Source: Chiloscyllium plagiosum (Eukaryota). Taken from it: a stretch of 64,000 bases of DNA. The number at the start of each line of letters is the position of its first letter. Position 1 is the first letter of the stretch. Positions 648 through 59,098 of this stretch are shown piece by piece. A program made the translations under genes and the position numbers. The notes beneath the pieces are model-generated. The model was not told where the DNA came from. It searched no databases and was given only the letters and a program-made list of their open reading frames with translations. The DNA lies in assembly GCF_004010195.1 (NCBI RefSeq), contig NC_057751.1, positions 11,522,578 to 11,586,577 of the forward strand, in the 5' to 3' direction.

Positions 648-773
648 TCCTGAAGAAGGGCTTATGCCCAAAACGTCGATCCTCCTGTTCCTTTGATGCT
701 GCCTGATCTGCTGCGCTCTTCCAGCAACACATTTTCAGCTCTGATCTCCAGAATCTGCAGTCTTCACTTTCTC
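648..773 (+). mobile_element. Short Penelope-like (pLTR-derived) retroposed element with minimal hammerhead core, family A
   Basis: Flanked by a perfect 14-bp direct repeat CATGTAAAATAATT (634-647, 774-787). Begins tcCTGAAGA-A-GGGC-TTAT-GCCC-AAAA-CGTC. Body closely matches the elements at 18805-19046, 52256-52464 and 58941-59098. Confidence 0.75.
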
Positions 774-1479
774 CATGTAAAATAATTGGCTAGGTTATCA
801 GAAGTAGATTTCAAAATGATCTCTAAGAATAACTTAGTTAACACCCATGAGAATTGATTCCAAAAATGGAAGATCTGACCGAATAAGCTTCTGAGATTTC
901 AGGAACTGAATCACTTCCTCCCTCCCACACAGCAACACTGCCACCTTCTGCCTTCATTTGCACATGCTCCTCTGAAGCACATGGGACATTTCATGATGCT
1001 AAAGGCATGCTGTAAAGGAAAGTTGTTGTGACAAGGCAAGTGTTTTTTTTGCTGTTCTTTAGTGGGATATGCGCTGTGCTGGCAAGATCAGCATTTGTGC
1101 CCATCCGTAATGGCCCTTGACCTGAGCGGGAGGCTAGGACCCTGTCACTGAGCATTTGAGAGTCAATTATATTGCTGCAAATCTGGAGTTAAAATATAGG
1201 CCAGATTGTGTAAGGATGTGTGTTGCCTTTTTGCAACCATTGAGGAGATTTTCAGGGCTCCGTTCCTGAGAAAAGGTCTCGCTTCCAGATATGTGCAAAG
1301 AAATTGAAATCCCACCACCTGCTCTGCAATGCAGTGAACAGGACCTGGGTCACTAGTCCAGGAATGTCACCAAAACATCAAGGGTTCTGCCCCGCCCTTC
1401 CCCTATCACAACAAAGTTTACAACATTGAGCTTAATTCAAGCTGAAGTTCTGAGGCTGGAGTAGATGATGGAGGAGTGG

Positions 1480-2030
1480 ATAATAAGCTGGTTGGAGGTG
1501 CGGCAAGTACCTGAAGCAGAATTGTTTTACAGTTGGGGCTTAGTTCCAATGGGTGAGTTGTGTGGTGCTGGGACCACTGCAGTTTCTATTTAAATAATGG
1601 AGCTCTGTTCAGAAACCTAAATCAAAGTGATCAAATATGCTAAAAAGTAGAAAGGTCTGTAGAACAAGGCATGCTGCATAGAAAGCACAAAATTAACTGG
1701 GCAAAATGTGGAGCATTGGCTTTCAATGCAGAGACGTCAAACTGAGATTGATGCGAAATCTATTCTGCCAATGCGAAGTAGCAATCTAAGAAATCAACAG
1801 GATGTTCAACTACATTGCGAAGACAGTGGAATATCAATGAGGAGATGTCATGGTCACATTGTCCAGTGCTCTTGTTAAGGTGCTAACTTGAATACTGGTT
1901 GCCATGATACCAGACATATGTATAAGCACTGGGAGTAGGACAGTGAAAGCTACAAGTTTGATCTCTGGGGTCAGGAGAGGCCTGACAACAATGGGCTGTT
2001 CAGCCTGGAGTAAGGCAAATAATGAATTAT
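1480..2030 (+). mobile_element. Old, highly decayed CR1-like LINE RT fragment
   Basis: Remnants resembling GS(V)LGP..F..YIND and W...FN..KC segments of the better-preserved CR1 copies in this window; no intact ORF. Confidence 0.4.
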
Positions 2031-2100
2031 AGCGACTTGAGGTTGTTTGTAGCATAGAAACGGTTAGCTTGGTAATCTACTGCGAAGTAGGTTGCAGCAA

Positions 2101-2292
2101 GTCTCTCTCTCTCTCTGTTCCTCCCTCTGCCTCTCTGTTCCTCCCTCTGTCTCTTTGTCTCTCTCCCTCTCTCCCTGTCTCTCTGTTTCTCCCTCACACT
2201 CGCTCGCCCCTGCGCGCCCTCCCCCACTCTGTTCGTGTCTCGCACTCTCACGCACACACTCGCTTGTTCGCGCGCGTATACACACACACACA
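2101..2292. repeat. Low-complexity (CT)n/(CA)n compound microsatellite
   Basis: Runs of ctctct... grading into cgcacacac...; this tract produces the overlapping spurious ORFs at 2027-2409. Confidence 0.9.
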
Positions 2293-4470: not shown

Positions 4471-4484
4471 AACTGACCAATAAC

Positions 4485-4970: not shown

Positions 4971-6497
4971 AGATGCTGTGAAAGCTGAGTGTTTTGTCAC
5001 ATATAGTATAAGGAAAACACACTTGGATAAGGTAGTTTTGCAATTTTTTGATACAAACCTCCATATTCAAGCACGAGAGAGAGGTTTTATCTCTTGACTG
5101 CTTATTTGCCGATTTACAAAACTTCTGTAGATCTTTCCGAATTCTCGTCAATTCAGGAACAGGAGTGAGCCATTCAGCTCCTCAAGCATGTTGTGCCATT
5201 CAGTGAGGTCATTGTTCATCTGGATTATCTGTTCCTGATCTTTAATGACCAATATATATCCATAATTACTGTTTGGAATCTGTGTCATACATTGAAGATC
5301 TGTTGTCATGGTGACTCTCACTTTTGGTTGTTACTTATATTATTTTTATCAGTCACTCTCCATGCATAGTGCGACTACCGTTTGATTGACAAGGTTAGAC
5401 ATCGGGGATTCCAAACTCCAAAAGTTCTAAACCAAGACTTTGCAATAAATTGGTGACTGAAGCTGTGTGTCACCACAGCCAAACTGGTCCTGTCAGACAG
5501 TGAAATTTCAGACAAGTCTTCAGTTAGAAATGATTTCTAATTTTCAATTTGGGTTTCTGAGTATCTCCTGTCATGCACATGTTCAAAAGTCATCTAGTTT
5601 CAGTCTGCAAAATGATAATGTTGGGAGGGGGCAATTTATTGCCATACAATTCACTGACTCTACAGCTAGGACAAAATAGTTTTTCTGATGAGTTCTCTCA
5701 CACATTTCAACACTGGGGCAACACAGAGATCCATGTTGTGTCGTTGTTAACTTAGTTTGGAAAAAAAAAAACAAAAACTCCTTTTTGTTTACAAGTACTT
5801 GTTCATTATTTCGGAACAAGTTTTCATTTTAAACAGGAATTTCAGCCTAGTTATCAGATTGCTCCCTGCTGTTTCAGTACAACTGGAGAGTTGTGTGATC
5901 AAGGAGAATTAACAAGGGTGGGTCATCAACCAAGTGGCATTAGTGAGAGACTGGAACAGGTCTACCATGAAGATCGTCAGCCAGCTAATAGCCTTGCATT
6001 GTAATGCATGGTATTTCCATGACAGAAACAGGCCATTCAGACCAATAGATCACTGCTAGTGTTTGCAAGAACATAAGAAGGAGGAGCTTTTCGTGATTCA
6101 TGCACAAAGACCCCTTCAGCTACCTGTGCTGCAGTTTTCCGCAATCGTTCCCCATTTAATCAATATTCAGGTCTTCTATTCTTCCTGCCAAAGTTTGTAA
6201 ACTCGAATTTCCTGAAGTTAAGTTACGTTCAATTATATGGCTCTGCAGCAGAGTCATCTCCAGTCTCCTGCTTTCACTTCCCCATCAAAGGCTATTCAGC
6301 CCATTATGGGTCTTTGAAAGAGGTGTCTGCTTCAGGTCCTTCCTCAATCCTCCAAGTTAATGTATGTCCAATTTTCCTTTGAAGGTTCCCTCCGAATCTG
6401 TTTTACATTCCAATCTCAGTGTTAGTGTGAAGCGATTTGGCGTAAATTTCCCTTTGGTTCTTCCACTCATTATTGCAAATTGATTTTACTAATTTCT

Positions 6498-6955
6498 TAG
6501 AATCCCTCCAGTGTGGGAACAGGCCCTTCGGCTCAATACCGACCCTCTGAACAGTATCCCACCCAATAGGCATTCCCTACCCTATTACTCTACGTGACCC
6601 CTGACTAATGCATCTAACCTACGCATCTCTAAACACTATAGGCAATTTAGATTAGATTAGATTATTTACAGTATGGAAACAAGCCCTTTGGCCCAACAAG
6701 TCCACTCCGACCCTTTGAAGAGTAACCCACCCAGACCCATTCCCCCTGACTAATGCACCTAACACTCCGGGCAATTCACTTGGCTAATTCACCTAACCTG
6801 CACACCTTTGGACTGTGGGAGGAAACTACAGCACCCGGAGGAAACCCACAGAGATGCGGGGAGAATGTGCAAACTCCACACAGACAGTCGCCCGAGGCAG
6901 GAATCGAACCCAATCCCTGGCGCTGTGAGACAGCAGTGCTCACCACTGAGCCACC
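6498..6955 (-). mobile_element. Two adjacent HE1-like tRNA-derived SINE copies (3' fragment 6498-6646, near-full copy 6647-6955)
   Basis: Reverse complement starts ggtggctcagtggtgagcactgctgtctcacagcgccaggg...ggttcgattcc (A and B boxes), has the central gtgtggagtttgcacattctcccc core and a (TCTAA)n tail. Confidence 0.85.
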
Positions 6956-7930
6956 AATCTATCTGTCTTCACACAGATTCAGCAGCTGTTTATTTTTCCA
7001 GCACAGCAATGGTATGTGTTACACTGACCTTTGAAAATGCAGGTCTATTGTCAGAATTGTTGGTAGGGGATGCCTTTCTCCATGTTAAATGTCATTGAGT
7101 TGAAGGGTTTTTCGGGAGCTGTGAAGAAAAACAGCGTTTCTTTACCTGGTGCAAAGGATTGGGTTTGCTTCACAAAGGAAACAACTGAAGGTTACGTTTT
7201 AAGGATCAGGAAATTGATTCCCTTCTGCCACCACCTTTTCCATTCCCAGTAGCAAAATGTAAAGTTCATCAGATAAATAACTGAACCAAAATCTGCACAT
7301 GTCGGAAGATGGTTAGCAGCTTCAAATGGCAAAAGATAGACAAGATCAGATTAAGCAGATGCAAACTAGAAGTATTTTTTTCCTATGAACAGAAGCATAG
7401 AGCAAGGCTTCATGAGGAACCCAGGTCTTGGTTCCATGTGATCTGGCAACACCATAATATATAGCACCTTAAGCATGTGCTCAGTTGTCACCTGTGAGAC
7501 TGTTGATAAAGTTACCCTTTCACTCCTCAGCACATGAATGTGGTCCTGCCTTCAACTCAGTCAGCATGAAGGGATGGTTTCTCTCGGAATTGCAATTACA
7601 GAATCGATCAATCTGTGTTTGTTTATGTGTGTGACATTGATCTGCACCGATCGGGAGGCTGGAACTGTGCTTGCATGCAATGAAATTCAAGTGTCCCTTT
7701 ATTTAACTTTTTTTTTCATTTCATGCAATTTCTATTTCTATTTCCCACTTCTTTAAAAGCTCACTGCTAGCATGCGCATTTGCTCCTTGAGTTTATTAAA
7801 GCAAAGTCAGGTAAAATGTTGTGTTTTTTGCAGGATGATGTGATTTGACTGTTCTCCTGTATTTTTTCCCCCTCTCTTTTTGTTTCTTTCTTTCTTTCTC
7901 TGTCTCTCTCCTCTCCCTCTCTCCATGAAG

Positions 7931-9526: not shown

Positions 9527-9773
9527 AATAGAATCATAGAATCCCTACAGTATGGAAGCAGACAATTTGGCCCATTGATTCCACACTGACTCGCCAATGA
9601 CCCAGATCCTCCCCGTGCCGCCCACCCCCAGCCTCTAACAGACTTTCTCTCTAACCATGCATTTCCCATGGCTAACCCACCTAACCTACACATTGCTGGA
9701 TACTGTGGGCAATTTAAAGTGACCTATCCACCCAACATGCACATCTTTGGACTGTGAGAGGAAACCAGAGCAC
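9527..9773 (-). mobile_element. HE1-like SINE 3' fragment
   Basis: tagaatccctacagtatggaagcag...catgcacatctttggactgtgagaggaaaccagagcac matches the other SINE copies. Confidence 0.7.
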
Positions 9774-15370: not shown

Positions 15371-15765
15371 TCCCTCATAAGATTGATAACAAGGGGCAGC
15401 TTTTCGTGAAGAGGTATTGGGAACAGAGAGCTCTCTGACACCTTGCAGCCAGTGGATGTAGAGGACATTGCAAAGGTTGTATGAGAATGTCCCTGGGGAC
15501 AGTGCAGCAAGAGAGGCTGATGCAGGAATATTCCAACATTTTGTGAACAAAGTGTTGATTCACATTCACTGTCATGAAATCCACACACAAATTAGGATGA
15601 GTGTTTAAGGACTGATTCGGGACTGGGCCAAATTCTAACCAAGGGATCAGTCAATGAGATTATTGCTGTCTGGCAATTTATTTCACTCAGGATCAAACAA
15701 ATTTATATCTTTGTGAAGTGAATTTGGCAGTGATCTTCAAATGAGGGAATTGTCTGTCACAAGAA

Positions 15766-15984
15766 AGTTAAAACTCACACAACACCAGGTTATAGTCCAA
15801 CAGGTTTATTTGGAAGCACTCGCTTTCAGAGTGCTGCTCCTTCATCAGGTGGGCAACCACTTGATGAAGGAGCAACACTCTGAAAGCTCGTGCTTCCAAA
15901 TAAACCTGTTGGACTATAATCTGGTGGTGTGATTTTTTTTTTTTAACCTTGTCCACCCCAGTCCAACACCGGTTCCTCCAAGTC
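15766..15984. mobile_element. Hairpin-shaped Penelope-like element with two inverted minimal hammerhead cores, family B
   Basis: Inverted repeat ~15767-15851 versus ~15858-15947. Near-TSD ctgtcacaagaa (15754-15765) and ctgtctcaagaa (15985-15996). + arm reads cac-TTGATGA-A-GGAG-caaca-CTCT-GAAA-GCTC-gtg; - arm reads cac-CTGATGA-A-GGAG..CTCT-GAAA-GCGA-gtg. Confidence 0.75.
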
Positions 15985-18449
15985 CTGTCTCAAGAAGTTA
16001 CAGTTTAGAAAGAGCTGGCATGGTGGAGGACGAGGAGCTGCAACGGTATTGCTGAAGGATGTTGCATTTCGTCTAACTTACCATTATTTTCTGATTCGCC
16101 CCAACAGTTTTTGTCCTTTTTTTTTTGGGTTTCTGGCAAAATATTTCAATTGGTGCCTGGCATGCGGTTCAAGGGAGTTAGCTTTCTGTTCATTACTCTG
16201 AATTTGGTTTCATGCTGCCCTCTGCTGGTCTGCAGTGTGTGGTAACAAACGGAAATTTGCAATAGCCCAGCCTGCCTGCTGTGGCCATGACACCAGGCTT
16301 TTGGATTGTTGGATGGTTTACTTGAGAGTGGATTCATATCCGCCTTCTTTCACACCTTATTCTACCTGTTACTTCAAAAGATTGCAATTCCAAAGCTCTG
16401 TTGATCTGCATCCAACCTTGAGCACCTTCCGTACACTTGTCATTCAAAACTCTGCTGTCTGTATCCTAAGTTACAGTAATTGTTTTTTAACCGTCATCCT
16501 TGCTGTTGCTGAACGATGCTGACTTCTGATCTGCCAAGACCTGTATTTTTAAACTCTTGTCATGATTTTCAAATCCCGAAGTAGCCTTGTCCCTCTCTAT
16601 CTTTCTACTGTCTTTTGATGAGCCCCACAATCTTCCAAGATAGCTGTGCTGTTCCAATTCTGGACCATTAAGCACCTAATATTTCATTGTTTTCGCCATT
16701 CATGGTTGTGACTTTCGCCACATTGTTTCTAATGTTTGATGGAAATACCTGCCTGAATCTCAGTCTCTCTGCATCTTCGTCCTTTGAAGAGCTTTTCGTT
16801 AAATCAGAAACTTCTGTTGTACTAAAATCATTTGACAGGCCCTCAGTCAAACCTTGTTGGATAACACTCTCTTGCTAAATGTTTTGGGACCTTCTTATTC
16901 AGCTTCATAGCTGCATGTTATTCTTTTGAAGGTGCTATACATATGTAAGTTAAAGAAATTGCAAAAAATAAATTGGATGAAGATTGAAAATGATTTGTGT
17001 TATGAAATGAATAGCAATGAGAGAGCTGATTCTGGGAAGTGAACTTTGTGGATTTGAGTAAATTGTGGGTCCACCAACAGCACATGGACTGCAGAAGTAC
17101 CTAACGCAGCTCACCACCACCTCCTTAAGGGCAACTAGGGCTCGCAATGAATATTGACCCAGCCAGAAATGCCTACCTCCTATGAGTGCGTAAGGAAAAG
17201 GAAGAGTTACTTTATATAATGAAAACAGTTTTGGAGTAACTCAGCAAGTTGAGCACATCTGTAGAGAATGAAATAGAAATGTTTTGAGTTCAAGCTGACT
17301 CTTCATAACCCTTTTCCTTTTATACATGTGTGAATAATGCCTGCTAAAGTCTTACAATATACCTCCAGACCATTCACGTGCAATATGCTGCTGTCAAGTT
17401 TCATGATGGCCATGTTGGCAAATGTGTATCATTTCGACAAGCTCATATGTGAATATTGGCAATTGATAATGGTACAACATGCCAGCAACCTTTTAACCTT
17501 GCATCAAAATGTAAATTCAGCACACTCAATGTAACACTGATTGCCTTGCTTGTTTACTAAAAGTGTGTCCGCCTTTTCAAGACAAAGGAACAGTGTGACT
17601 CCAACATGGTCTTAAGGCACATTTTGGAGCTTGCCAACATCTTCAATACCGCCATGGGGGATATTGATGGTCAGGCTGTAATTAAATGGGATGGGCACAT
17701 CATGTCTCACACACACAGGCTGAGCATTTCACTGTCCTGCCCACTTTTCCTTTTTTAACTCTGTGGTTCAGAAAGTAATAATCAGCACTGCCTGGGACTT
17801 TGGGCTGCTTGTTAACACTGCTCTCAGAGAAATCATGGGTGTTCACTGGTCTCCAGTATGCATTACAGCAAACACCTGGGGCAATTCCTGTCAAATTTTA
17901 CACCCCATCTCCCCCCCCCCCCCAAATCTGTTGGAGTGTTGTCAAACACAAACAGAACTGGTTTGTCCCTGCACTGACAAATTGTGGCTTTGTAATAAAC
18001 TTCCTGACCCTGTGAATAGAAAACCTCTGATCGGATCAAATTGGTGGATGCTGAAACAAATCTGATTTGAATCAGTTTTGCTTTCTGCAAACTAGAGGTA
18101 GATTAGGAGGAAATGGTGTCATGGAGGCCACCACCTGAGTGGACTATTCTATCCAGGGGCAAATCCCTATTTCTGCCAGGGTTTGGTGATTTCCCAGCCC
18201 ATCAAGAAGAGATTTCCTTCATTGGTCTCATCACAAACTGTGCATCTTAAAATGTGTTGCGAATCACTCCTACTTTGCCACAAAGTGATGTGCGTACAGT
18301 CAGGGATGGCATCTGAGGGCAATCAGAATGTTGACCACCCAGCTGGTGGTTTGGATGTAACAGCAACAACATCTCTGGTTGAGACCTTCCTGGAGGGAAT
18401 TGTGAAGGCTAGGAAATAAAACGTGATGTTTGAAGGTCACCCCATAGCC

Positions 18450-19445
18450 TCTGACAATCCAGGGGAAAAAAAAGTCCCAACCTATTCAGCCTTCTCCTTT
18501 TAACTCCAGCCCTTCAGTCCCAGCAACATTTGTTGTAACGGTCTAAACCCTCTCAAGTCTAACAACGTCCTTCCTATAGAAGGACCAGCATTGTACACAA
18601 TATTCCAAAAGTGGCCTCACCAAAGCCTGGAGAACCACAATATGACCACCTAACTCTCATACTCAAAGTTCTGATCAACGAAGACAAGCATATCAAACGT
18701 CGTCTTCACCACCCTGTCTATATGCAACTCCAACGGCAAGGAAGTATGCACCTACAGTCCTAGGTCTCTTTGTTTGGCAATACTCCCCTGGGCCTGACCA
18801 TTAAGTTGAGAGTGTGGCGCTGGGAAAGCACAGCAGGTCAGGCAGCATCCGAGGAGTAGGAGAATCAACGTTTCTGGCAAAAACCCTGAATCAGGAACCC
18901 TACCTGATCAGGAGCCCTTCCTGATGAAGGGCTTTTGCCCGAAACATCGATTCTCCTGCTCTTCACACGCTGCCTGACCTGCTGTGCTTTTCCAGCACCA
19001 CACACTCGACTGTAATCTCCAGCAACTGCAGTCCTCACTTTTGCCTACCATTAACTGTATAAGTCCTGTCCTGATTTAGTTCACCAAAATGCAACATCTC
19101 ATTTAAATTAAACTCCATCTCCCATACACGGCCCATTGGCCTTTCTGATCAAGGTCCCAATGTACTCTGAGATGATCTTCCTTGAGGTAGTGTGCTACAC
19201 CATCTATTTTGATGTCATCTGCAAGCTTACTAACCGTATCTCCTATATTCACATCCAAACCATTTCTATAAAAGATGACAAGCAGTGGACCCAGCACCAG
19301 CCCTTGTGGCACACCACTTGTTGCAAGCCTTCAGTCCAAAAAGCAACCCTCTATCACCACCCTCTGTCTCCTGTCTTCCAGCCAATTTTGTATCCAATTG
19401 TCTGGTTTGCCACGATCCAATGTGATCTAGCCTTCCTAACCAAAT
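18450..19445 (-). mobile_element. CR1 LINE RT fragment interrupted by a nested hammerhead-bearing element
   Basis: Minus-strand ORF 19103-19312 reads PQGLVLGPLLVIFYRNGLDVNIGDTVSKLADDIKI (RT core). CR1 sequence is continuous across the insertion at 18805-19046. Confidence 0.8.
18805..19046. mobile_element. Hairpin-shaped Penelope-like element with minimal hammerhead core, family A, nested in CR1
   Basis: 8-bp TSD ACCATTAA (18797-18804, 19047-19054). Inverted arms ~18805-18896 and ~18918-19010. + strand core CTGATGA-A-GGGC-TTTT-GCCC-GAAA-CATC at 18921-18948. Confidence 0.8.
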
Positions 19446-32740: not shown

Positions 32741-33126
32741 TTGGTGATGAATTGACAATTAGTGCAAAGGTTGAGATTTCCACTTACAAACTGACTTTTT
32801 TTTTGCACTTAGGGCCTGATGACTGTATTCCCAATTTGCCATGACACAAGTTCTTATAGTGTGTTGAATGAGATCAATACAGAAAAGGGGGTAAACAGTC
32901 AGTGGGTAAAAGGGGGCTCCGCGTTTAATGGGACAAAACAGTGTTGTTTTCTTGTTGATTCCTGAAATATGTAGCAAAATTTAAATGAAACACATGCTCA
33001 TCTCCTGTGCTGTGCTGTCTTGTAATATTCCACAATAAAGAGAATTGATTCTTTGGCTCTGACTAAAGTCAGATGAAAAGAACCTGGTCAAAACCTGCTA
33101 GGAGACCACATACAGTACCTTCTTTG

Positions 33127-33443
33127 AATCCCTACAGTGTGGAAGCAGGCCATTTGGAGCAGTCCACACTGACCTCCAAAGACCATCCCACCCAGACTCA
33201 CCCCCCCCAAATCTGTCCCTGTAACCTTGCATTTCCCTGGTCTGCACATGTCTGGACAGTATGGGACCATTTAGCAAATCAATCCACCTAACCTGCACAT
33301 CTTTGGACTATGGGAGGAAACTGGAGCATCCGGAAGAAACATGCAGAGACATGGGGAGAATGTGCCAACTCCATACAGTCGCCCAAATGTGACCCTGGCG
33401 CTGTGAGACAGCAGTGCTAATCACTGAGCCACTGTGCTACCCC
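33127..33443 (-). mobile_element. HE1-like SINE
   Basis: Same SINE core; reverse complement starts gggtagcacagtggctcagtgattagcactgctgtctcacagcgccaggg. Confidence 0.8.
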
Positions 33444-38339: not shown

Positions 38340-38470
38340 CATTCAGTTCCAAAGAAGGATCACATCAGACTCAAAATGTGACCTCTGTTTCTCTTCTTTA
38401 GAGATGCTGCCAGACCTGTTTAATTTCTCCAACACTCTGTTTTTGTTTTGGATCTCCGGTGTCTGCAGTC
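38340..38470 (+). mobile_element. Decayed Penelope-like short element, third subfamily
   Basis: cagttccaaagaaggatcacatcagactcaaaatgtg...gatgctgccagacctg...tctgcagtc shares the gatgctgcc.gacctg and tctgcagt blocks with family A. Minus-strand relatives lie near 17220-17310 and 45680-45755. Confidence 0.5.
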
Positions 38471-38721
38471 TTTTGGAACTGTGCGTCAAGATGGGAATGC
38501 CTTCTCATTTTGAAGGTGCAGTGAGGTAGGGAATCTGGAGGGAGCAGATGGTGAAAGGTGGTAGAAGGCTTGGGCTTGACTTATTTCTGAGATGGTTCAA
38601 TGAAGATCAGAAACTGAGGGACATTGGGAATTGCTGTTGTTAAGCTGCTTTCTGTGTCACTATGCTCAATCACCAAGTAATCTGGAATAGATATGCATGA
38701 CACATTATTTCTTTTTTACAG

Positions 38722-39267: not shown

Positions 39268-39851
39268 AGAACATAGAACATAAAAAAAATACAGCGCAGT
39301 ATAGGCCCTTTGGCCCTCGATGTTGCGCCGATCCAAGCCCATCTAACCTGCATTAGCCCACTATCCTCCATATGCCTATCCAATGCCTGTTTAAATGACC
39401 ATAAAGAGGGAGAGTCCACCACTGCTACTGGCAGGACATTCCATGAACTCACGACTCGCTGAGTAAAGAATCTACCCCTAACATCTGTCCTATACCTACC
39501 ACCCCTTAATTTAAAGCTATGCCCCCTTGTAATAGCTGACTTCATACGTGGAAAAAGATTCTGACTGTCGACCCTATCTAAACCCCTAATCATCTTGTAC
39601 ACCTCTATCAAGTCACCCCTAAACCTTCTTTTCTCCAATGAAAACAGCCCCAAGTGCCTCAGCCTTTCCTCATACGATCTTTCTACCATACCAGGCAACA
39701 TCCTGGTAAACCACCTCTGCACCCGTTCCAGTGCCTCCACATCCTTCCTATAGTATGGCGACCAAAACTGCACACAATACTCCAGATGCGGCTGCACCAG
39801 AGTCTTATACAACTGCAACATGACCTCAGTACTCCGGAACTCAATTCCTCT
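39268..39851 (-). mobile_element. Young 5'-truncated CR1 LINE with intact ORF2 C-terminus
   Basis: Uninterrupted frame in ORF 39204-39905 (RGIEFRSTEVMLQLYKTLVQPHLEYCVQFWSPYYRKDV...FKQALDRHMED). (AGAACAT)n tail on +; ACAAT flanking repeats at 39263-39267 and 39852-39856. Confidence 0.9.
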
Positions 39852-39861
39852 ACAATCTTGG

Positions 39862-40025
39862 TTTGAGACAAAAAAAACTGCAGATGCTGGAACCAAAGTA
39901 GACAAACAGGAGGCTGGAACGACACAGCAAGCCAGGCAGCATCAGGGAGTGGAAATGTTGACTTCTCCCCTTCGTGATGCTGCCTGGCTTGCTGTGTCCT
40001 TCCAGTCTCCTGTTTGTCTACCTCG
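39862..40025. mobile_element. Hairpin-shaped Penelope-like short element (hammerhead core absent)
   Basis: Inverted arms gtagacaaacaggaggctggaacgacacagcaagccaggcagcatca (~39898-39944) and tgatgctgcctggcttgctgtgtccttccagtctcctgtttgtctac (~39975-40021). actgcagatgctgg end shared with family A. Confidence 0.7.
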
Positions 40026-41044
40026 GTGACAATCTTTGGCAAAATCAGAGAACATGAGCAGCTCCGTGACATCGCCACAATGTTGTTCTAGGATCCTAAA
40101 GCTTTTGCCAGACACAGATGGCATTTGTTCATAATTGAAAAGTTAGTGGTGAACTCATATTGACTGAATTAGTGTAAACACTGGTCTGCTTTCCCACTGT
40201 CCTTTAAGGATAGCAATCTGCAATCCTTATTCAATCTGAGTTCACTCTGACTGCAGACACACAGCTGGATGACTGATTGTGAACTGCCTTCTGAAATGGC
40301 CTAGTTTTATAGACATTCTAAAACACAACTCACACCACCATCTTGTTGAGGGCAATTGCAGCAACATTTGCTTTCCATGAATGACACATGAGAAAGGGGA
40401 GTCACATTTGATTTCCAGTTGTAGTTTGGGACTGTCTGCCTATTGCTTTTCATTACTACAAATATCATTTGCTTATCATTTCTGCAAATCAAATGTCCTG
40501 GCTACCAGATACAGCTTCTGACTATCTCCTTCATTGTGATGATGCCTCAGTGTGTAGTTGATTTAACACCACATTTCTTTAGCTGTGCTGGAATGATAGC
40601 CCTCATTTCTCACAGGAGACATCCAGCTTGTGTGGATAGTTCTCGTTTCCAAGTGACAAGTGGATTCAGTCTTGGGTAGATCCTGTGATCTTGTCATGAA
40701 GTCCCATGTCCACCTCGTGGGATAGCAGCGGATGATTTCCAATGGACTTCTTTAGTTATCCTGCCATTCCTAGAATGTTTTCTACTTGTTTGAAGTCGAA
40801 AATACCTACATCAGGACTGTTTGTAATTGACTCATTTGGCAATGGTAATCTAGACAATGCATCATCAATCCCACACAAGATGGAATTGTCTAAGTGTGAA
40901 CTTGTAGCAGCAACACCCACTTCTACAGAAGGTTCATTGCTAGCAAAGGTATCCTGTACGAGGCCCAAATATTGCGGTCACTGCTCTGTGCTCTATTATA
41001 GCAGGGTAAACTCCAAACTGTAGTTATTGGTGGGATCATCTCAT

Positions 41045-41223
41045 AGAACATAGAAAAATACAGCGCAGTACAGGCCCTTTGGCCCTCGATGTTGCGCCGA
41101 TCCAAGCCCACCTAACCTACACTAGCCCACTATCCTCCATATGCCTATCCAAAGCCTGTTTAAATGCCCATAAAGAGGGAGAATCCACCACTGCTACTGG
41201 CAGGGCATTCCATGAACTCCCGA
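41045..41223 (-). mobile_element. Short 3' end of the same young CR1 subfamily as 39268-39851
   Basis: Near-identical to ~39270-39456; CTCAT flanking repeats at 41040-41044 and 41224-41228. Confidence 0.85.
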
Positions 41224-41574
41224 CTCATGCCAATAATACTTCCTGGAGCTTTTTTCTTTATCTGTGCCTAGTTCATTTCTGCTATGTTTCACGTCTTGAT
41301 GCAAAAACTATTGGCTTCTCCTCACCATTTGGTAATCTGTGAGAAAGACTGCTCCCACTCCAAAATGTCCGATGATGTCATCATGTCACAAGTTTGGACT
41401 CTTAACCTGACAGTGCACTATATTAGGCAATACACCACAGAAAGTATGCTGGGAAGATCTTGCCTTTCCAATCTTTTGTTTATCTTATGGCATTCCAAAT
41501 ATGTTGCAGATACAAGAAAAATAATAAGCCCAGAACTGAGACATTGTGAAATACTTTGGACAACTATTGTATTT

Positions 41575-44994: not shown

Positions 44995-45304
44995 GATTAT
45001 GGAAACAGGTCCTTTAGCCTAACAAGACCCTTTGAAGAGTAATCCACCCAGATGCCTACCCTATTATCTTATATTTACCCCGAACTAATGCACCTACACA
45101 CCCCTGAATACTATGGGCAATTCAGCATGGCCAATTCGCCTAACCTGCGCATCTTTGGATTGTGGGAGGAAACTGGAGCACCCAGAGGAAACCCACACGT
45201 GCACGGGGAGAATGTGCAAACTCCACACAGCCAGTAGCCTGAGGCTGGAATCGAACCTGGGTCCCTGGTGCTGTGAGGCAGCAGTGCTAACTACTGAGCC
45301 ACCA
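44995..45304 (-). mobile_element. HE1-like SINE
   Basis: Same SINE core and tRNA-like head (reverse complement ggtggctcagtagttagcactgctgcctcacagc). Confidence 0.85.
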
Positions 45305-46302
45305 GGCTGCCATAAATCATGTTAACTTGCAAGCCTGGCTGAGCAGTACTTGGAGATACAACTTCGAGAAGCATGCCCAAAGTGTCACACAAAGGCACCG
45401 TTTAAACAAAACAAACATGAGAACCAAAGAAAGACAGGAGGTGCATTTGAAAGCTTAGTCACAGAAATGGAGTTGAAGAAAGGATCGAAAAGAGGTAGAG
45501 AGGATGAGTTACAAAGCATGGAGGCTGGTCAGCTAAGGGAGGGGCCAAAATGAAAGGGTAAAAGGATGATCAACCCTGAGTCCAGCTGTGTTTGGACAAT
45601 TGGAACAGGATGTGTGGGCTGGCTGATTAGTACTCCAGTGTGGGATAGGATTTGGGCAGCAGAGCTATCCAACATAACTAAAAACCGAAAGTGCTGGAGC
45701 AACTCAGCAGGTCTGGTAGCATCTGTAGACAGAGTCAATGTTTTGAGTCCAGTTCAGAGAGAGAGGGAGAGAGAGAGAGAAAACACCAAGGAGTTGAGCA
45801 TCTGCTTGAAGTTACTGAGTATGAAGAGTCATTGAGGCATGGAAACAGTGCAGGTGAGTCGAGGAGATAACTCCTTGCATTTCTAACGTTGACAAGTGAA
45901 TCCAACCCAACCACGTTTCAGTTTGAAATGGACGTTTTTCTCTGTCCTCTGGTCACCAAGGTACAAGAGAAATATCTTGTGAAATTCTTAGTGCAGTTAC
46001 AAGTAGGTCTCAGCCCATAATGCACATTCCTGCAACTTAAGAGTGAGCAGCTATACTTGGAGAGACCAGAACACTTCCACCCAGAACAAAATAATTCATG
46101 AGTGAAGTTCAGTTTTTTCCTCTAGCTTATGTGCGTTTTCATTCTTACAGATATCCTTCAATCTTCCAATCTCTTGCTCACTTACTTCACCACTGCTTTG
46201 ATTTTTACATATTTGGTGCTGACACATATCAGAATGAAAGTTGAGGCTTATTAGTTGTCTGTTTTACTTGAGGAAAAACTGCTTGCAAAGGCAAGATATT
46301 TT

Positions 46303-51135: not shown

Positions 51136-51364
51136 ATCAGTTCCCTGTTATGCTTTCTTCCTGTTGCATGATACAGTAATGGTAAAGAAGAGATTAGATG
51201 TTTAATGTATACTGGTTCACAAGATGCAGTGTGTTGCTTGCTGGATGCTCTTCGCTAATTGTCTCAGAGAAGATGATAATGAGCTGCCTTCTTGAATGGC
51301 TACTCTTTGGGTTGTTGGGGCATGGCGATAGTATTGTGTGGTTGGTGTTCCAGGATCTTTTTCA

Positions 51365-51673
51365 GATTAGATTCCCTACAGTACGCAAACAGGCCCTTTG
51401 GCCCAACAAGTCCACACCAACCCTCCGAAGAGTAACCCACCCAGACCCATTCCCCTAACCTTTACTCGTCTAATGCACCTGCGGGCAATTTAGCATGGCC
51501 AATTCACCTAACCTGCACATCTTTAGATTGTGGGAAGAAACTGGAGAACCCAGAGGAAACCCACGCAGATACGGGAGAATGTGCAAACTCCACACAGACT
51601 GTCCCCTGCGGCTGGAATCCAACTCAGGTCCCTGGCACTGTGAGGCAGCAGTGCTAACCTCTCAGCCACTGTG
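51365..51673 (-). mobile_element. HE1-like SINE
   Basis: agattagattccctacag...cactgtgaggcagcagtgctaacctctcagccactgtgc. Confidence 0.85.
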
Positions 51674-52255
51674 CGTCTGGTGGCTTTTGACCCACAACAG
51701 CGAAGGGTGATGATTTGGAGGGAAATGTGCAGGTGTTCACGTTACCAGACACTTGCCTCATTCTCCCAGGTATTAGACATAAAAGGGTTTGTAAGGTGCT
51801 GTCGAAGGAGGCTTGGGAGTTACTGCAGTGCATCATGTGGATGGTACACAGTGCTGTCACTCTGCATCTGTGGTGGATGGGGTATTTATCAAGAGGACTG
51901 CTTGATCCTTATGATGCAAACACTCATTATTGAATGGGTTACAGATTTGTCTTGATATTATTTGTTACCATACAAACGAAAAAATTAAGTCACTTCTGTT
52001 TCACGATTTTAGCAGCACACTTGCACCAATCAGCTGTTTCTTTTCCGAGATGTTAGTTGAGACCAGTGTGTCAGCAGTCAACAGGTGAGGTGCAAAACTC
52101 TGAAATCCAAGAAGCCTCCAAATGAAAATAGGATGTGATGTAACTGCACACCATCTCCATCATTAACATTAATTTGTGTCTCAAAGGCAGCGTGACCTGG
52201 TTAAGTGATAGCATTGCAACATAATATTGAAGTAAAAATGACTTATTTGTAAGCT

Positions 52256-52464
52256 CGGAGAAACTGAGGGCTGCAGATGCTGGAGATCAGAGCTGAAAAT
52301 GTGTTGCTGGAAAAGCGTAGCAGGTCAGGCAGCATCCAAGGAACAGGAGAATCGACATTTCGGGCATAAGCATGAAGAAGGGCTTATGCCCGAAACGTCG
52401 ATTCTCCTGTTCCTTGGATGCTGCCTGACCTGCTGCGCTTTTCCAGCAACACATTTTCAGCTTC
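52256..52464. mobile_element. Hairpin-shaped Penelope-like element with hammerhead core, family A
   Basis: 10-bp TSD TTTGTAAGCT (52246-52255, 52465-52474). Near-perfect inverted repeat ~52291-52371 versus ~52382-52462. aTGAAGA-A-GGGC-TTAT-GCCC-GAAA-CGTC at 52372-52399. Confidence 0.8.
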
Positions 52465-53566
52465 TTTGTAAGCTAACACGCTACCAAAAGGTTAGACAAA
52501 AGGTAACTTTGGTTTTAACTTGTTCGGAGAACAGTGTTTGGCAGATTGCAAAACAAGCTCTGTTCTTAGGTCGAGTGTTCTATCAGCACATATGAAAGAC
52601 TAGAGTGGAAGACTGAATGTGACTGAGAGAAATGAGCAAGTGGAAATGATTGTGCATTGATAAAACTCCTATACATAACTAAAAAAAAAAGACAAGCCCT
52701 CCACTGAGTTGTGCATCATTTTCAGATTCTTCAAATGATTGTATCGTGTTACTGGCTGAATGAGTGACCTTAGAGTTTAGGCATCCAAAGGTAGCAGCAA
52801 CACATTGTATTTAGGTTTTGTTTGGTGGTTTGTCTCAGGAGTGAGATTTGTGCATTTTTAAATATTGGTCAGCGTTATCATGAGGTATCTTTCTAACAAT
52901 GTAATGGCACCACCCATTTACAAGCTCTCATTGATTTGAACAGTGTCTCACTCTTGCCGAAGTTCTGTTTTGTTGCATATAGGATTGAAAAGGTTAAAAC
53001 ATGATTGAGTGCAGTAATGTCATGGAAACTTTGATAAAGTAAAGGAGCCTATAGAAGACAGACCTGGGGATAGCTCCCCCTAACATTCTCTCCGTTCATG
53101 CTCATATAATCTGTAAATAGTTGCAGTATTGCAATAAACCTCATTGTTTACTCAACAAGTAGACTCTTCCAGTTAGACGCAAAGGTGGATATCCTCATCC
53201 AAATTCAAATACTTTGAACATGAAGGAACCCACCCGAAATACATTTAAGAATGACAGAATCTTCAGCTGCCACTTCAGGAAGAAATCAGTCATTTCTAAC
53301 AGCAGAGAGTAGGTTTTCTTTTCAAACAATGTGTTAGTGAAATAGAGGGTCAAGTTCACTTTTCCTCTCAGAAAGCTATAAAGCACAGGTGAAAAAAACT
53401 GTCATAGTGACTGCAGAACACATGGAAGTGGAATCGGTCAGATTCCAGGAGGATACCTGTGTGGAGTTATGTTCAATAAAGTCTGTTTATGTTCACTGGA
53501 TGTGTGCAGACCTGAACTTAGTACAGTTGGTAGTTTTTTATGAATTGCATAATGCTGTAAAGTAAA

Positions 53567-53832
53567 TTAGATTAGATTAGATTACATTAGTGTGGAAACA
53601 GGCCCTTTGGCCCAACAAGTCCACATCGACCCGCCGAAGCGCAACCCACCCATTCCCCTACATTTACCCCTTTACCTAACACTACAGGCAATTTAGCATG
53701 GCCAATTCACCTCCCACGCAGACACTGGGAGAATGTGCAAACTCCACACAGACAGTCGCCTGAGGCGGGAATTGAACCTGGGTCTCCAGCGCTGTGAGGC
53801 AGCAATGCTAACCACTGTGCCACCGTGCCGCC
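53567..53832 (-). mobile_element. Young HE1-like SINE with internal deletion and (TCTAA)n tail
   Basis: (ttaga)x3 tail; head reverse complement gggcggcacggtggcacagtggttagcattgctgcctcacagcgc; central segment missing at gccaattcacct|cccacgcag. Confidence 0.85.
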
Positions 53833-53907
53833 CACAATGTGAAGTATAAAAGCGCACAGTTGCTGCTGACTAATCAGTTGCAACATAATTCAGCAGAGCA
53901 TCTTAAG

Positions 53908-54187
53908 ATTAGGTTCCCTAGAGTGTAACAAGTCCACACCCAAAGAGTATCCCACCCTGATCCTATATTTACCCCTGACGAATGCACCTAACACTATGGG
54001 AAATTCAGCATGGCCGATCCACCCTAACCTGCACATCTTTGGATTGTGGGAGGAAACCAGAGTGCCTAGAGGAAACCCACGCAGACACAGGGCAAATGTG
54101 CAAACTCTATATAGATAGTAATCAGAGGTGGGAATCGAACCCAGGTCCTTAGCACTGTGAGGTAGCAGTGCTAACCACTGAGCCACC
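53908..54187 (-). mobile_element. HE1-like SINE
   Basis: ORF 53890-54186 (MAQWLALLPHSAKDLGSIP...) is the translated SINE head. Confidence 0.85.
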
Positions 54188-54331: not shown

Positions 54332-54550
54332 AAGACATAGGAGCACAAATTAGACCTTTCGGCCCATCGAGTCTGCTCCGCCATTCAATTATGGCTGATA
54401 GGTTTTCCAACTTCATTTTTCCACTTTCTCCCTGTAGCCTTTGATCCCCTTGGTAATGAAGAACTATCTATCTCTGTTTTAAATATACTCAATGACCTGG
54501 CCTCCACAATCTTCTGGTGCAGTGAATTCCACAGATTCACCACTCCCCGG
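54332..54550 (-). mobile_element. CR1 3' end fragment
   Basis: Minus-strand VVNLWNSLHQKIVEARSLSIFKTEID plus a caagacataggagca tail. Confidence 0.8.
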
Positions 54551-55515: not shown

Positions 55516-56031
55516 ATAGAATAGAATTTCTATAGTGCAAAAAGTGCCCAGTTGGCCCATCATGTCTGCACTGACCCGGTGAAGAGCATTTCACCAGACC
55601 CATCCCATAACCCTGCATGGGGTTTTTAACCATGGCTAACCTACTCATCCCTCGATACAATGGGTCATCTTTTTCGCATAGCCAATCTACCTAACCTACA
55701 CACAGTTGGACTGTGGGAGGAAATGCAGCTATGAAGAGAATGTGCAAACTCCACTCAATCAGCCAAGGTTGGAACCAAACCTGCTCTCTGGTGCAATGGC
55801 TACATTATTATGACTAATTCACTTACGTGTACATCCCTGGATACTCCAGGGAAATTTAGCATAACCAAACCACCTCACCTGCAGATCTTTGGACTGTTGG
55901 AGGAAACTAGAGTACTTGATGGAAATGCATGCAGACATGGAGAGAACATGCAACCTCCACACAGACACCCAGGGTTGAAAGCAAACCTGGGTCCCTGGTG
56001 CTGGTAAGCAGCAGTGCAAGCCATTGTGCCA
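55516..56031 (-). mobile_element. Two decayed HE1-like SINE copies in tandem (~55516-55795 and ~55810-56031)
   Basis: Two occurrences of the ctaacct.cac..tttggactgt.ggagga core; one tRNA-like head at ~55990-56031. Confidence 0.7.
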
Positions 56032-56473
56032 CATTATTTGGAGAAAGTTTATCAGTGTTTTCAATTGGAAAAAGGACAGTTGATTGAGCCATTCCAAAAT
56101 GGATAAAGGTTCCCGCTGAACATTTCTTGTGACTGCAAGAATAATATGAGATGGTTGGACTGTTCCATCACTAAGGCAAAAATCTCCCCTGCTGTTAGTG
56201 TGGTGGTAAGTGTTATCATTGAACCCACTGCACCAAGGCCTGGGATGAATGTTCGCACATGGTCTCCTGCTCTTCACCTCATTTGTTAATTCTGCAACTG
56301 TATTGTGGGGGCAATTTTCCAACAATTACATAACCAGAGAAGTGGAAGTGTTTATCACTGTGGGGACCTACTGGAACACACGCCTCTGTTGCCATATTCC
56401 AAACCAAGTGGCATGCTACTTTATTTGCTGCAAGCCATGGACTATGGTGCTCAAACTGAAATGTCTCAGAGAA

Positions 56474-56660
56474 CAGTGTTTTGCGAATAGGGATCTGCAC
56501 ATGCTGGCAGATGGGGTGGTAGAGAGCAGGACCACCCTTTTTCTAGCTGGTTGTCAAAAGAGGCCATGCCACAAACACAGCCACCCTGGTCAGAAATTGA
56601 ATCACATCAAATGAACTTTCATGCAGGTAGAAGGTCAGTGATCGTCTCTGCTCGACAAAC
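56474..56660 (+). pseudogene. Decayed Myb/SANT-like DNA-binding domain, probably from a PIF/Harbinger transposon
   Basis: QCFANRDLHMLADGVVESRTTLF..., then after a frameshift PPWSEI, then CR*KVSDRL. Fits the F..(D/E)L..L...V.....LF / W..I / (Q)C.KK..DL pattern, followed by a gtaa donor-like site. Confidence 0.5.
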
Positions 56661-58940
56661 GTAATTGCCCCCATCTTGTCTCTGTTATCTCGCATTCACA
56701 TTGCTAGCATTCAATCTAACCCTCCACCATGCATAAATCTTACCAAGTATCCAGTATTGCAACTCTCCATATTGTATGCTTTATGTCCACTCAAAGAATC
56801 ACACAAGCCTCGATACCTCGCACTCCATCCACGATACTTCCTGTTCCTTCCTAGGAGAGACCTCAGCATCTCTCCTGTTCATACATGATCAGAAACTGCT
56901 CTGAATCCACTTCCATTACATGCAGTCCCTCCCTTTTTGTCATTGTAGGGAAAATGGCCCACCCCTCCAGTATAATAGCTTAACTACACCCTGACTGACC
57001 TATTGTAATCCCTGAACCTCTTCCATTTAATATGCAAGACTGATTCTGGCCAGGACCCATGTCCAGTAATCAAATGAGCTCCTGGATTGATTGTGATGGT
57101 CTCCTGCTGATTGACGATGGTTCCCCTTCACCCCAGCACATGCTGCAGTTTGGATGTAGCACTGTGCCTTGCGTTGATATATGTGCACCCACTGCCTGGC
57201 TGAAATGTTTACACTGTAGTGTTCTCCACCATCACCAACCAGGTGCCTTCCCGCACTGCATACACACACAGAGGCTGGCGACCTGTACCTCAGTGGTCAA
57301 CACCATATGTGTCAGGAAAGCACAGTGAGGCAGACAGAAGTTGGCAGCATCTAATTTAGCACGACAGTAAGTGATTGCTGGAAAAGCAAGGTAAGAGCCA
57401 TAAAATGCACATGTACGTGTCAACACAAAAGCATGGCTGTTGCTGCTTGCAAAACCACCTGGAGGAAGCACACGATTCATGGCTGTCCACCTCTTTCAAA
57501 GATGAAGTGGTGCGGGGGGTTCGTCCCAGGGCAGGCATGACAATGTCTCGCTGATATTGACTTGGGTGGATGCAGAATTGATGGCTACAGAGGGCGTTTG
57601 AGCAGAAGAAGCAGTTGTACGATGGCAGTTGACAAGCCACAGCTGCCAGGTACCTGCTCTGTTGAACCTGTTGGGAATTTGCTGTTTCTTGATGGGGGAA
57701 GAGGAGAATGAGAAAGAGGATATACATAGGTTACGGTGGGATTTTAATGCATTGCAAATGCATAGAAATTAACTAATTGCCACCTATGTTGCCTCTAAAA
57801 CTTTATTATGTGTGGACCTTTGAGGTCCCTTGTGGCAGTGAGTTCCGAAACCCACAAGTCAATGTTACACTTACAGGGACTCTTGATCGCCACTTAAAAC
57901 AGAGACTTCAAGCTTAAGGTCAAAATTCAGAACATGTATCTTGACATAAAGAATCTGATTTTTAAAAAATTCTCACTCTATATGTCACCTTGCTTGCCAT
58001 TGACCTCGACACAGCAGGAAGAAGAGAATTCTGCTGTGAGTAAAGTTATGTTTTCGCATTTCTGGTCTGTGGTTTGACCTTTTTTTCCTAACAAGTTCTG
58101 ACCTTCTGCTGATAGTATTTCATTCAGCGGCGAATCTCTTATCATTTCCTGCAGAACTGCACCAGTCACTTTATGGAGAAAAATATACAAATTTATGGGA
58201 GAATGTGCACTGTCAATAAATACCTCATGCTTAAGAATAATAGCTAAACTTTTGTTACTCAGGAGAAAGAAAGTAAGCTTTTCTGTGGTTTGTTGTGTGT
58301 GGGTGAGGCATTGTTCTACCTGTGCGGCATCAAATGAGAATGGCTGCAATATCCAGAGATCACGGACGTGCCTGCTGTTTGCTGACAGCTGTTTTATAAT
58401 CCCGGGAGCAAGCGAGTACAAAGGGCCTGAGAGAAAGATTGGCTGCGACTGTTTCTCAAAATAGCTTTGATTCTCTTTTGTGCACTATTGTTTGGAAATG
58501 AATCTGGGAAACACCTGATACTTGGCTCACAACAGAACTAACTAATGCAGAATAATAGATCTTCCAAGAAAATGACCGAGCTGCCTTTTTGAGATCACTT
58601 TGCCAGTTCAAGAGACATGTTTTTATTCTGAGAGTAGGCCTACTCACCTATAGGTATGATGATTGGATGAAAATAAAGATGTCTCAATAACAAAACAGAT
58701 GAGAGAAAAGTGATAACAAACCTTTCACCAATTTTTATCAATACCTTAAATACTTTACCATATTTTTAACTGTTGCTCCCACTCCATCCAAATACATGTC
58801 ATGTGAAGCAAAAGCAATCAGCAAAGTAGACACTTACGGAAAAAAATGGCAGCTTTAAAGTGTTGCACTGATCTCACAGACTCCATTTGTTCTGGCCTGT
58901 CAGACCATATTGTTTACTGATGGAACAGGCACTTGCACAT

Positions 58941-59098
58941 AGGAGATAGTGAGAACTGCAGATGCAAGAGAGTCAGAGTCGATAAAGTGTGGCACTGGAA
59001 AAAGCACAGTCCTGATGAAGGGTTCTGCCTGAAACGTCAAATCTCCGGCTCCTCGGATGCTGCCTGACCTGCTGTGCTTTTCCAGCGCCACACTCGAA
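58941..59098. mobile_element. Partly hairpin Penelope-like element with intact hammerhead core residues, family A
   Basis: CTGATGA-A-GGGT-tct-GCCT-GAAA-CGTC at 59012-59038. Inverted arm agtgtggcactggaaaaagcacag versus ctgtgcttttccagcgccacact. Degenerate TSD aggcacttgcacat / aggcactgccccat. Confidence 0.7.

Follow-up and report, generated by a model that had tools for sequence, protein, structure and literature searches.

Short hammerhead-bearing insertions of two unrelated families at a shark TACC1 locus are probably stubs of Penelope-like elements

The insertion units of endonuclease-positive Penelope-like elements (PLEs) include a pLTR, an adjacent inverted and 5'-truncated copy, and an optional tail of 30-40 bp (Arkhipova et al., 2013, PMC3846280; Craig et al., 2021, PMC8557442). 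Metazoan PLEs also carry minimal hammerhead motifs, made up of CUGANGA, one unpaired base, a helix II that opens with G-C or G-U, and GAAA, in which a two-base palindrome replaces helix III and helix I has 2-3 bp; these motifs are mostly single and scattered, and opposite-strand pairs 100-700 bp apart have been described as well (Cervera and de la Pena, 2014, PMC4209133). For Poseidon of Anolis carolinensis (PAc), the purified protein cleaves and extends both strands, prefers AT-rich targets, copies an uncleaved RNA template, and begins at two internal sites by which the tail is delimited (Frangieh et al., 2024, PMC11167929). Non-LTR retrozymes, in turn, are defined as head-to-tail tandems, and in one account (Cervera and de la Pena, 2020, PMC7229834) by circular RNAs and canonical hammerheads too; they have been reported in a chondrichthyan, where 'monomer' copies were described (Li et al., 2026, bioRxiv 10.64898/2026.07.22.740005). 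As minimal hammerheads, inverted repeats and tails are already published for PLEs, a further example has little weight as a catalogue entry, while the formation of the inverted ends and the role of the hammerhead are stated as open in papers on PLEs.

The window analysed here is a stretch of 64,000 nucleotides of the Chiloscyllium plagiosum genome that corresponds to the TACC1 locus, one exon being 100% identical to TACC1 of Chiloscyllium and Hemiscyllium. A first-pass annotation, made from the letters alone, had described five short insertions (c1-c5) as one abundant, non-coding, Penelope-type and retrozyme-like family in a shark. The five insertions are genuine: all lie where that annotation had located them, and each has flanking direct repeats (Table 1). 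The lengths of 8-14 bp given for these repeats did not stand, since with mismatches allowed they come to 14, 12, 13, 14 and 14 nt for c1 to c5. When the two flanks of each copy were aligned locally, 6, 0, 37, 2 and 116 of 5000 random pairs, respectively, reached the score obtained, so that the c5 repeat is weak when taken alone. At c1, the one copy of the five for which empty orthologous sites were examined, one contig each in the runs X10 and X17 (two other species) joins 633 directly to 774, skipping 140 nt; 14 letters match either side of the joint, and the 14-nt target is present once. We regard the repeats as target-site duplications of variable length (12-14 nt over c1-c5), made on insertion as the empty site shows for c1. 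Together with three decayed relatives (c6-c8), where three or four had been reported, the window holds eight loci of such elements.

Table 1. Positions of the insertions, their arms and their target-site duplications in the 64,000-nt window.
Feature	Position	Strand	Details
c1 left target-site duplication	634..647	+	14 nt, identical to 774-787; single at empty site in X10, X17
c1 single family-A unit	648..773	+	minimal hammerhead, body to ~740, tail ~741-773
c1 hammerhead positions			C3 at 650; G12->A at 670; cleavage triplet 675-677
c1 right target-site duplication	774..787	+	
c2 left target-site duplication	15754..15765	+	12 nt, 11/12 matching 15985-15996
c2 family-B short arm, no tail	15766..15852	-	hammerhead C3 at 15848; U16.1->G
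c2 family-B long arm	15857..15984	+	C3->U at 15861; tail ~15950-15984
c2 right target-site duplication	15985..15996	+	
c3 left target-site duplication	18792..18804	+	13 nt, 8 exact; right copy one base short
c3 family-A short arm	18805..18897	-	core 10/12 (broken); helix II broken
c3 junction filler	18898..18917	.	within a 17-nt local tandem of junction sequence, 2.4 copies, 18885-18925
c3 family-A long arm and tail	18918..19042	+	core 12/12; 15.2-16.2 palindrome lost
c3 right target-site duplication	19043..19054	+	
c4 left target-site duplication	52242..52255	+	14 nt; 13/14 against 52461-52474, 10 exact
c4 family-A long arm and tail	52256..52371	-	5'-truncated within helix II; spans c1 positions 660-774
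c4 family-A short arm	52372..52462	+	spans c1 positions 651-740; C3 lost at junction
c4 right target-site duplication	52461..52474	+	first 2 nt shared with arm end
c5 left target-site duplication	58927..58940	+	14 nt, degenerate; 7 exact against 59099-59112
c5 family-A long arm and tail	58941..59009	-	truncated downstream of hammerhead; spans c1 positions 711-774
c5 family-A short arm	59010..59098	+	core 12/12; helix I closing pair lost; helix II one base short
c5 right target-site duplication	59099..59112	+	degenerate
c6 decayed family-A relative	39865..40026	.	head-to-head: long arm -, short arm +; no clear duplication
c7 decayed family-A relative	45661..45757	-	adjoins CT-rich tract
c8 decayed family-A relative	38341..38480	+	start again at upstream edge of hammerhead region

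The description as one family had to be abandoned, because the copies fall into two unrelated ones: family A comprises four of the insertions and the three decayed relatives, and family B is c2 alone. By neither blastn nor nhmmer did c2 match the other copies, and only one of 14 cross-family alignments was better than shuffles at p<0.05. What the two families share is the hammerhead layout and nothing else; both agree with the published minimal consensus, down to the palindromic 15.2-16.2 pair and the additional base that follows A9. Family A may be Poseidon-like and family B Neptune-like, these clades being defined by RT phylogeny and a Zn-finger motif in the linker. A 26-nt family-A motif had no match among metagenome and viral contigs, as expected for a vertebrate repeat.

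A feature absent from the first-pass annotation is that four of the five insertions (c2-c5), and also c6, consist of head-to-head inverted arm pairs. The unit is 90-126 nt long, begins with the hammerhead and can terminate at either of two 3' ends, which lie about 35 nt from each other; it occurs singly or head-to-head. In all four listed palindromes and in c6 the tail (about 33-37 nt in family A, 35 nt in family B) is confined to one arm. The arms are 93% identical over 81 nt in c2, 84% in c3 and 98% over 81 nt in c4. In c4, c5 and c6 they are not nested, the short arm extending further 5' while the tail lies on the other arm, and this speaks for both nicked strands having acted as primers; the asymmetry was seen in three of five palindromes with two ties (sign test, about 0.125). 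As the junction differs from copy to copy among c2-c6, and as contigs contain four distinct opposite-strand joints with one side at 646-650, the inversions appear to arise at insertion.

The 5' ends are concentrated in the 6 nt that precede the hammerhead core, where the transcript possibly starts. This clustering is judged from the window copies and from tandem joints in contigs rather than from the peak of loose ends at 647. With c1 as the reference, that peak is in part an edge artefact, because the consensus of all four runs has a few letters in common further upstream. Loose-end peaks at 735/740 and 774 match the two 3' ends. An AC-rich stretch lies upstream of the short end of family A.

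A strict minimal-hammerhead pattern occurs at two places in the window (18921 and 59012); 200 first-order shuffles gave 0.025 on average and never more than one. The layout reported previously was confirmed, but departures from it had been attributed to some copies only, and all seven hammerhead-bearing arms proved to be damaged. Requiring all 12 core positions, the 15.2-16.2 palindrome, a helix I of at least 2 bp and a helix II of at least 4 bp, none of the seven is intact, and two keep all 12 core positions; moreover, the motif of c2-c4 sits inside a long hairpin. A functional ribozyme in the present copies, as their description as ribozyme-bearing implied, is accordingly unsupported. The search against Rfam that had been proposed with that description returned no match at the gathering score for the window, and among seven weak matches to 15600-19200 there was no hammerhead family. 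Folding energies are uninformative, as nine single-arm folds were mostly no stabler than shuffles (z from +0.70 to -2.36) and helix III is beyond the reach of a monomer. Cleavage as a dimer has reportedly been described by Lunse and colleagues.

At the level of the genome, the majority base of family A is canonical at every core position, variants of at least 10% within 650-677 are limited among genomic copies to N7, loop II and CpG sites, and G12 is G in 601 of 830 RNA reads. All seven hammerhead-bearing arms run upstream past the cleavage site, and the RNA template was therefore presumably uncut at the hammerhead. No pile-up of read ends was among the features listed for four runs, nor was one listed at 677/678 for one polyA run, the latter being a weak test of self-cleavage. 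RNA records containing the c4 stretch were absent from those listed, which says nothing on expression.

Such elements are unusually common in this shark. In X1, 19,033 of 19,387,400 records match c1, and summed contig depth reaches 2.6-7.5 million over the unit against 18-20 over the flanks, a sign of high abundance and not a copy number. Head-to-tail joints running from 734-757 back to 647 are present in a minority of contigs; the joint 739->647 was found in 9, 1 and 1 contigs of X1, X10 and X17.

Head-to-head palindromes with one-arm tails, duplications of 12-14 nt and a minimal type I hammerhead are the published anatomy of PLE ends. With endonuclease-positive PLEs the shark copies share head-to-head inverted repeats, a tail at one end, target duplications of variable length and a hammerhead in the repeat, as well as solo pLTRs and partial tandems. 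They differ in that the whole insertion is the repeat alone, 125-240 bp without an ORF, in the concentration of 5' ends at the upstream border of the hammerhead, and in that duplications are of 12-14 nt, compared with 8-10 in the rotifer examples compared here. CUGANGA, the unpaired base, the opening pair of helix II, GAAA, the two-base palindrome, the 2-3 bp of helix I and the mostly single, scattered occurrence correspond to the metazoan motifs, whereas helix II has 4-5 bp and every shark copy is damaged; the supplement file of PMC4209133 that was searched held no shark sequence. Points in common with PAc are the two start sites a tail-length apart, the uncleaved RNA template and the extension of both strands, as we propose them for the shark units, together with a hammerhead close to where the repeated segment begins and the AC-rich stretch before the short end of family A. 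However, PAc is autonomous and biochemically tested, while the shark families have no known protein and are likened to it by layout and not by sequence. The resemblance to non-LTR retrozymes lies in being non-coding, in the type I hammerhead and in the relationship to PLE terminal repeats, but the five shark copies are single or inverted, their hammerheads are minimal, and their ends are not at the cleavage site.

Taken together, these observations suggest that the copies are probably inert PLE stubs of two unrelated families, written by a PLE reverse transcriptase and endonuclease. The protein would nick both DNA strands with 12-14 nt between nicks, and cDNA would be primed at one of two internal start sites (giving a tail or none) on an RNA uncut at the hammerhead. 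Copying would stop some 6 nt or less upstream of the core, either where the 5' end of the transcript is reached or at a structural block. Priming by one strand would yield a single unit such as c1, and priming by both would yield cDNAs joined at their 3' ends, that is, a palindrome with a tail on one arm and a copy-specific junction, as in c2-c6. The likeliest template would be the terminal-repeat portion of autonomous PLE transcripts, and the hammerhead would be conserved in the source elements, followed by neutral decay in the copies. This reading accommodates the single target at the empty c1 site, the one-arm tails (the PLE layout of PMC8557442 and PMC3846280), passage through the cleavage site, the copy-specific junctions, the non-nested arms and the restricted genomic variants, and purified lizard PLE protein does perform both-strand extension from two start sites on uncleaved RNA (PMC11167929). 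Against it, no autonomous partner emerged from the window, where none of 109 ORFs of at least 82 aa has a GIY-YIG domain, or from protein searches with the unit's open frame: two gave no match and the third gave three (a PDZ gene model carrying the peptide, a repetitive protein and a short ORF), none with an RT domain according to Pfam and none a PLE protein. In addition, loose 3' ends at 774 have no common continuation into an ORF (agreement 0.34-0.50), head-to-tail joints do exist in contigs, the arm asymmetry is limited to three palindromes, and the 5' ends scatter much less than expected from random truncation, a pattern compatible with a dedicated small RNA too. The open frame itself, of about 26 codons, was discounted as evidence of coding, its length being that expected by chance. 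It sits inside a PDZ-protein gene model (P0002).

Such a dedicated non-autonomous element (SINE- or retrozyme-like), the view of the first-pass annotation, would have its micro-copies, or 93-nt head-to-tail dimers, transcribed and then moved in trans by a PLE protein; the route might include self-cleavage of the dimer and a circular RNA. The great abundance, the uniform unit size, the best-supported 3' loose ends lacking an ORF continuation and the contig joints all agree with it, cargo can be mobilised in trans by nothing more than pLTR sequence (PMC3846280), and pLTR-related tandem hammerhead repeats have been reported from one chondrichthyan (bioRxiv 2026.07.22.740005). We nevertheless consider it unlikely: none of the five copies is a tandem, the nine X1 contigs with tandem joints are few compared with 261 loose 5' ends, and the cleavage site, which every hammerhead-bearing arm overruns, does not coincide with the unit ends. 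The junction unique to each palindrome further implies that no palindromic master was copied, and 95% of X21 reads continue into unlike sequence, although this polyA library is blind to small circles. The retrozyme-like label is therefore not retained for the window copies, while the absence of coding capacity, the Penelope-type affiliation and the abundance in a shark were upheld. Keeping the PLE origin, the palindromes might instead have formed by self-priming, a single antisense strand folding back on itself as already proposed in PMC3846280. The head-to-head geometry, the short palindromic or locally templated junctions of c2 and c3 and the near-identity of the c4 arms would suit this route, yet it appears improbable, as the second arm would be a subset of the first, whereas c4, c5 and c6 each split the tail and the 5'-most bases between arms, and purified PLE protein extends both target strands. 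The least credible reading, and one largely refuted, is that of DNA-transposon MITEs whose arms are terminal inverted repeats and whose hammerhead-like motif arose by chance. It would account for palindromes in four of five copies and for the narrow range of duplication lengths; still, fixed-length duplications and equal terminal inverted repeats, named at the outset as marks of a MITE, were not what we found, c1 being single-armed, arms unequal, junctions variable and duplications of 12-14 nt, and two unrelated families have only the hammerhead layout in common, with motif counts above those of shuffles.

A more specific version of the PLE-stub reading, which we regard as speculative and rather doubtful, is that each micro-copy represents cDNA from just the opening 90-130 nt of a PLE transcript. 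Transcription would be initiated 4 nt upstream of the hammerhead core, where there is an initiator-like motif, and a PLE protein dimer would use the two start sites in this 5' leader for priming on both target strands; promoter-bearing stubs would then flood shark genomes, re-amplify alone and seed 93-nt tandem retrozymes. If so, the tens of thousands of palindromes would document in vivo how a telomerase-related reverse transcriptase primes on two strands. So abundant a family is also a dataset in which 5' stops, arm nesting and duplication length, scored genome-wide, could separate two-strand priming from fold-back. For annotation the copies are a pitfall, as they resemble MITEs or microRNA hairpins; the weak Rfam matches in 15600-19200 include miRNA families.

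All five short insertions proposed in the first-pass annotation (c1-c5, see table) are present in the sequence, and the direct repeats described around them are real, reaching 14, 12, 13, 14 and 14 nt for c1-c5 when mismatches are allowed. Alignment scores as high as theirs arose in 6, 0, 37, 2 and 116, respectively, of 5000 flank pairs drawn at random. Four of 24 listed sequence runs were compared with window positions 300-1100, and in two of them, from two other species (X10 and X17), one contig each skipped exactly 140 nt at c1, with 14 letters fitting both sides. These contigs represent an empty site carrying the target once; c1, the copy examined in this way, is therefore a true insertion with a 14-nt target duplication.

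The insertions had been presented as a single family, but two were found, A (c1, c3, c4 and c5) and B (c2). Shared stretches of the family A copies are 76-98% alike. Neither blastn nor nhmmer matched c2 to any of them, and of 14 alignments across families, 1 was better than shuffles at p<0.05. From their sequences, c1/c4 and c3/c5 look like two subfamilies within family A. Family A may be Poseidon-like and family B Neptune-like. The three or four decayed relatives mentioned in the first-pass annotation amount to three (c6-c8), all of family A.

Coordinates of features in the window
Feature	Position	Details
c1	648-773	family A
c2	15766-15984	family B; junction with 4-nt spacer
c3	18805-19042	family A; junction with locally templated filler inside 17-nt tandem
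c4	52256-52462	family A; direct join, long arm cut inside helix II
c5	58941-59098	family A; direct join, long arm cut about 60 nt further in than c4
c6, decayed relative	39865-40026	family A
c7, decayed relative	45661-45757	family A
c8, decayed relative	38341-38480	family A
c5 inversion junction	59009/59010	c1 positions 647/711
Palindrome centres	15827-15882, 18862-18951
Isolated hammerhead-like match	21759-21788 (+)	CUGAUGA...GAAA-like
RT fragment	37004-37321 (+)	PF00078
N run	37384-37635	sole assembly gap
TACC1, ten coding exons	7932-49192 (+)	residues 511-860 of P0008
SINE-like copies	6497-6956, 9536-9772, 33123-33432, 45026-45303, 51364-51670, 53573-54187, 55522-56032, 62803-63139
Recent local duplication	30932-31796	300 nt, 96%, spacing 565 nt
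Recent local duplication	39285-41226	173 nt, 95%, spacing 1769 nt

Both families carry CUGANGA, one unpaired A, a helix II of 4-5 bp, GAAA and NUH, with a two-base palindrome where helix III would be, and match the minimal type I hammerhead consensus as described in PMC4209133, which admits a helix I of only 2 bp. A scan with a strict pattern gave 2 matches against a shuffle mean of 0.025. None of the seven hammerhead-bearing arms has an intact hammerhead, and all 12 core positions are retained in two. Among genomic copies, variants reaching at least 10% within 650-677 are confined to N7, loop II and CpG sites, so source elements appear to keep the core while copies decay. Core position G12 lies within a CpG and is G in 601 of 830 polyA RNA reads (X21), which underestimates G because c1 carries A at this position. 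Because all seven arms run at least 25 nt upstream past the point of cleavage, the template was either uncut or re-ligated at this point. No pile-up of read ends occurs there among the listed entries, although 150-nt reads from a polyA library test this only weakly. Transcribed whole, c2-c4 are predicted to form long hairpins (-135 to -168 kcal/mol) with the motif buried. The isolated hammerhead-like match fails the strict helix II pattern, is unlike either family, and is probably due to chance.

The first-pass annotation had not described that c2-c5, and the decayed c6, are head-to-head palindromes. In each, one arm has a short 3' end and its partner goes on for another 33-37 nt; loose ends across the genome peak at these two 3' ends (735/740 and 774 in c1 coordinates). 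The junctions differ in every palindrome of c2-c5. The c5-type junction recurs in one contig of run X1, three of X10 and three X21 reads, which may reflect a favoured joint, or c5 orthologues together with independent events. Two palindrome centres weakly match models of microRNA precursors, falling short of gathering scores, and could thus be mis-called as miRNA hairpins.

The 5' ends are also clustered. The single unit c1, both c3 arms, the c5 short arm and both c2 arms start 2-4 nt upstream of core position C3, and the c4 short arm starts at U4. Loose ends peak at 647 (261, 222, 359 and 93 records across the four runs), a peak that is partly an edge effect: the consensus strings of all four runs share their last six letters (TCCTCA), so some copies continue further upstream, although over 30 nt the agreement there reaches only 0.34-0.53. 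Head-to-tail tandem joints are a cleaner test. Among the 7 listed X1 joints into 647 with intervening letters (11 further ones exist), four add A, CA or TCA, in agreement with the shared upstream letters, and the remaining three add something else; the second units at those four begin 4-6 nt upstream of C3. A class of X21 loose ends at c1 position 655 (87 reads, agreement 0.84) points to one well-expressed transcript whose copy extends further upstream. In family A only, the upstream letters together with the unit start fit the initiator consensus YYANWYY, a resemblance spotted post hoc. Penelope of D. virilis is described as having an internal promoter and an intron end at helix I (PMC2377424, PMC4209133). 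Together, these likenesses make a transcript start or splice junction at the unit 5' end a plausible candidate, with a block to reverse transcription as the alternative explanation of the clustering.

As reported in PMC11167929, purified Anolis Penelope-like element (PLE) protein cuts both strands of its target and extends them, reverse transcribes from two internal sites whose spacing equals the tail, and prefers AT-rich targets, hammerhead cleavage not being required. Priming at a single target end would yield a single unit such as c1, and priming at both ends a palindrome with a newly made junction and a tail on one arm. Judging from the anatomy and the lizard enzyme, such two-site, two-strand priming could account for every part seen. 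Fold-back self-priming has also been proposed for palindromes (PMC3846280). It implies nested arms, but in c4, c5 and c6 the short arm extends further 5' and the tail is on the long arm alone, so the arms are not nested; c2 and c3 count as ties, and three cases with two ties make no significant sample.

A dedicated non-autonomous element seems an unlikely source of the insertions, even though no autonomous PLE partner emerged: none of the 109 window ORFs has a GIY-YIG domain, one has an RT domain, and no PLE protein came up when the open frame of the unit was used as a protein query. The RT fragment, which we take to be CR1/L2-type from its motifs, adjoins the N run. Head-to-tail joints (739->647; 9, 1 and 1 contigs) likewise speak for such an element, since they show that the tandem units by which non-LTR retrozymes are defined exist as a minority. 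The earlier label "retrozyme-like" does not hold for c1-c5, which fail the definition as worded in PMC7229834 and bioRxiv 10.64898/2026.07.22.740005. Flanks at the 3' loose ends are AT-rich and not common to copies. The family A open-frame peptide occupies residues 286-311 of P0002, in the C-terminal part of a PDZ-domain gene model, and is probably a mis-annotated or exonised copy.

Published descriptions of PLEs include solo repeats, tails on one side and inverted copies truncated at the 5' end (PMC8557442, PMC8969392, PMC3846280). Penelope is listed for the whale shark (PMC8455134), and hammerhead tandems are reported in one chondrichthyan by bioRxiv 10.64898/2026.07.22.740005, whose supplements may list shark families. 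The open literature searched showed no paper on shark micro-insertions of this type, on 5' ends clustered at the hammerhead or on the nesting of arms; the families may well be catalogued in subscription journals or Repbase/Dfam.

The window covers the TACC1 locus of a hemiscylliid-like shark, the exon tested being 100% identical to TACC1 of Chiloscyllium punctatum and Hemiscyllium ocellatum. Insertions c2 and c3 sit between coding exons, c1 upstream of the first mapped exon, and c4 and c5 3 and 10 kb beyond the last coding exon. The window also contains two recent local duplications and an abundant SINE-like family, unrelated to the insertions (repeat families D2, D3, D6, D7, D9, D11 and D17).
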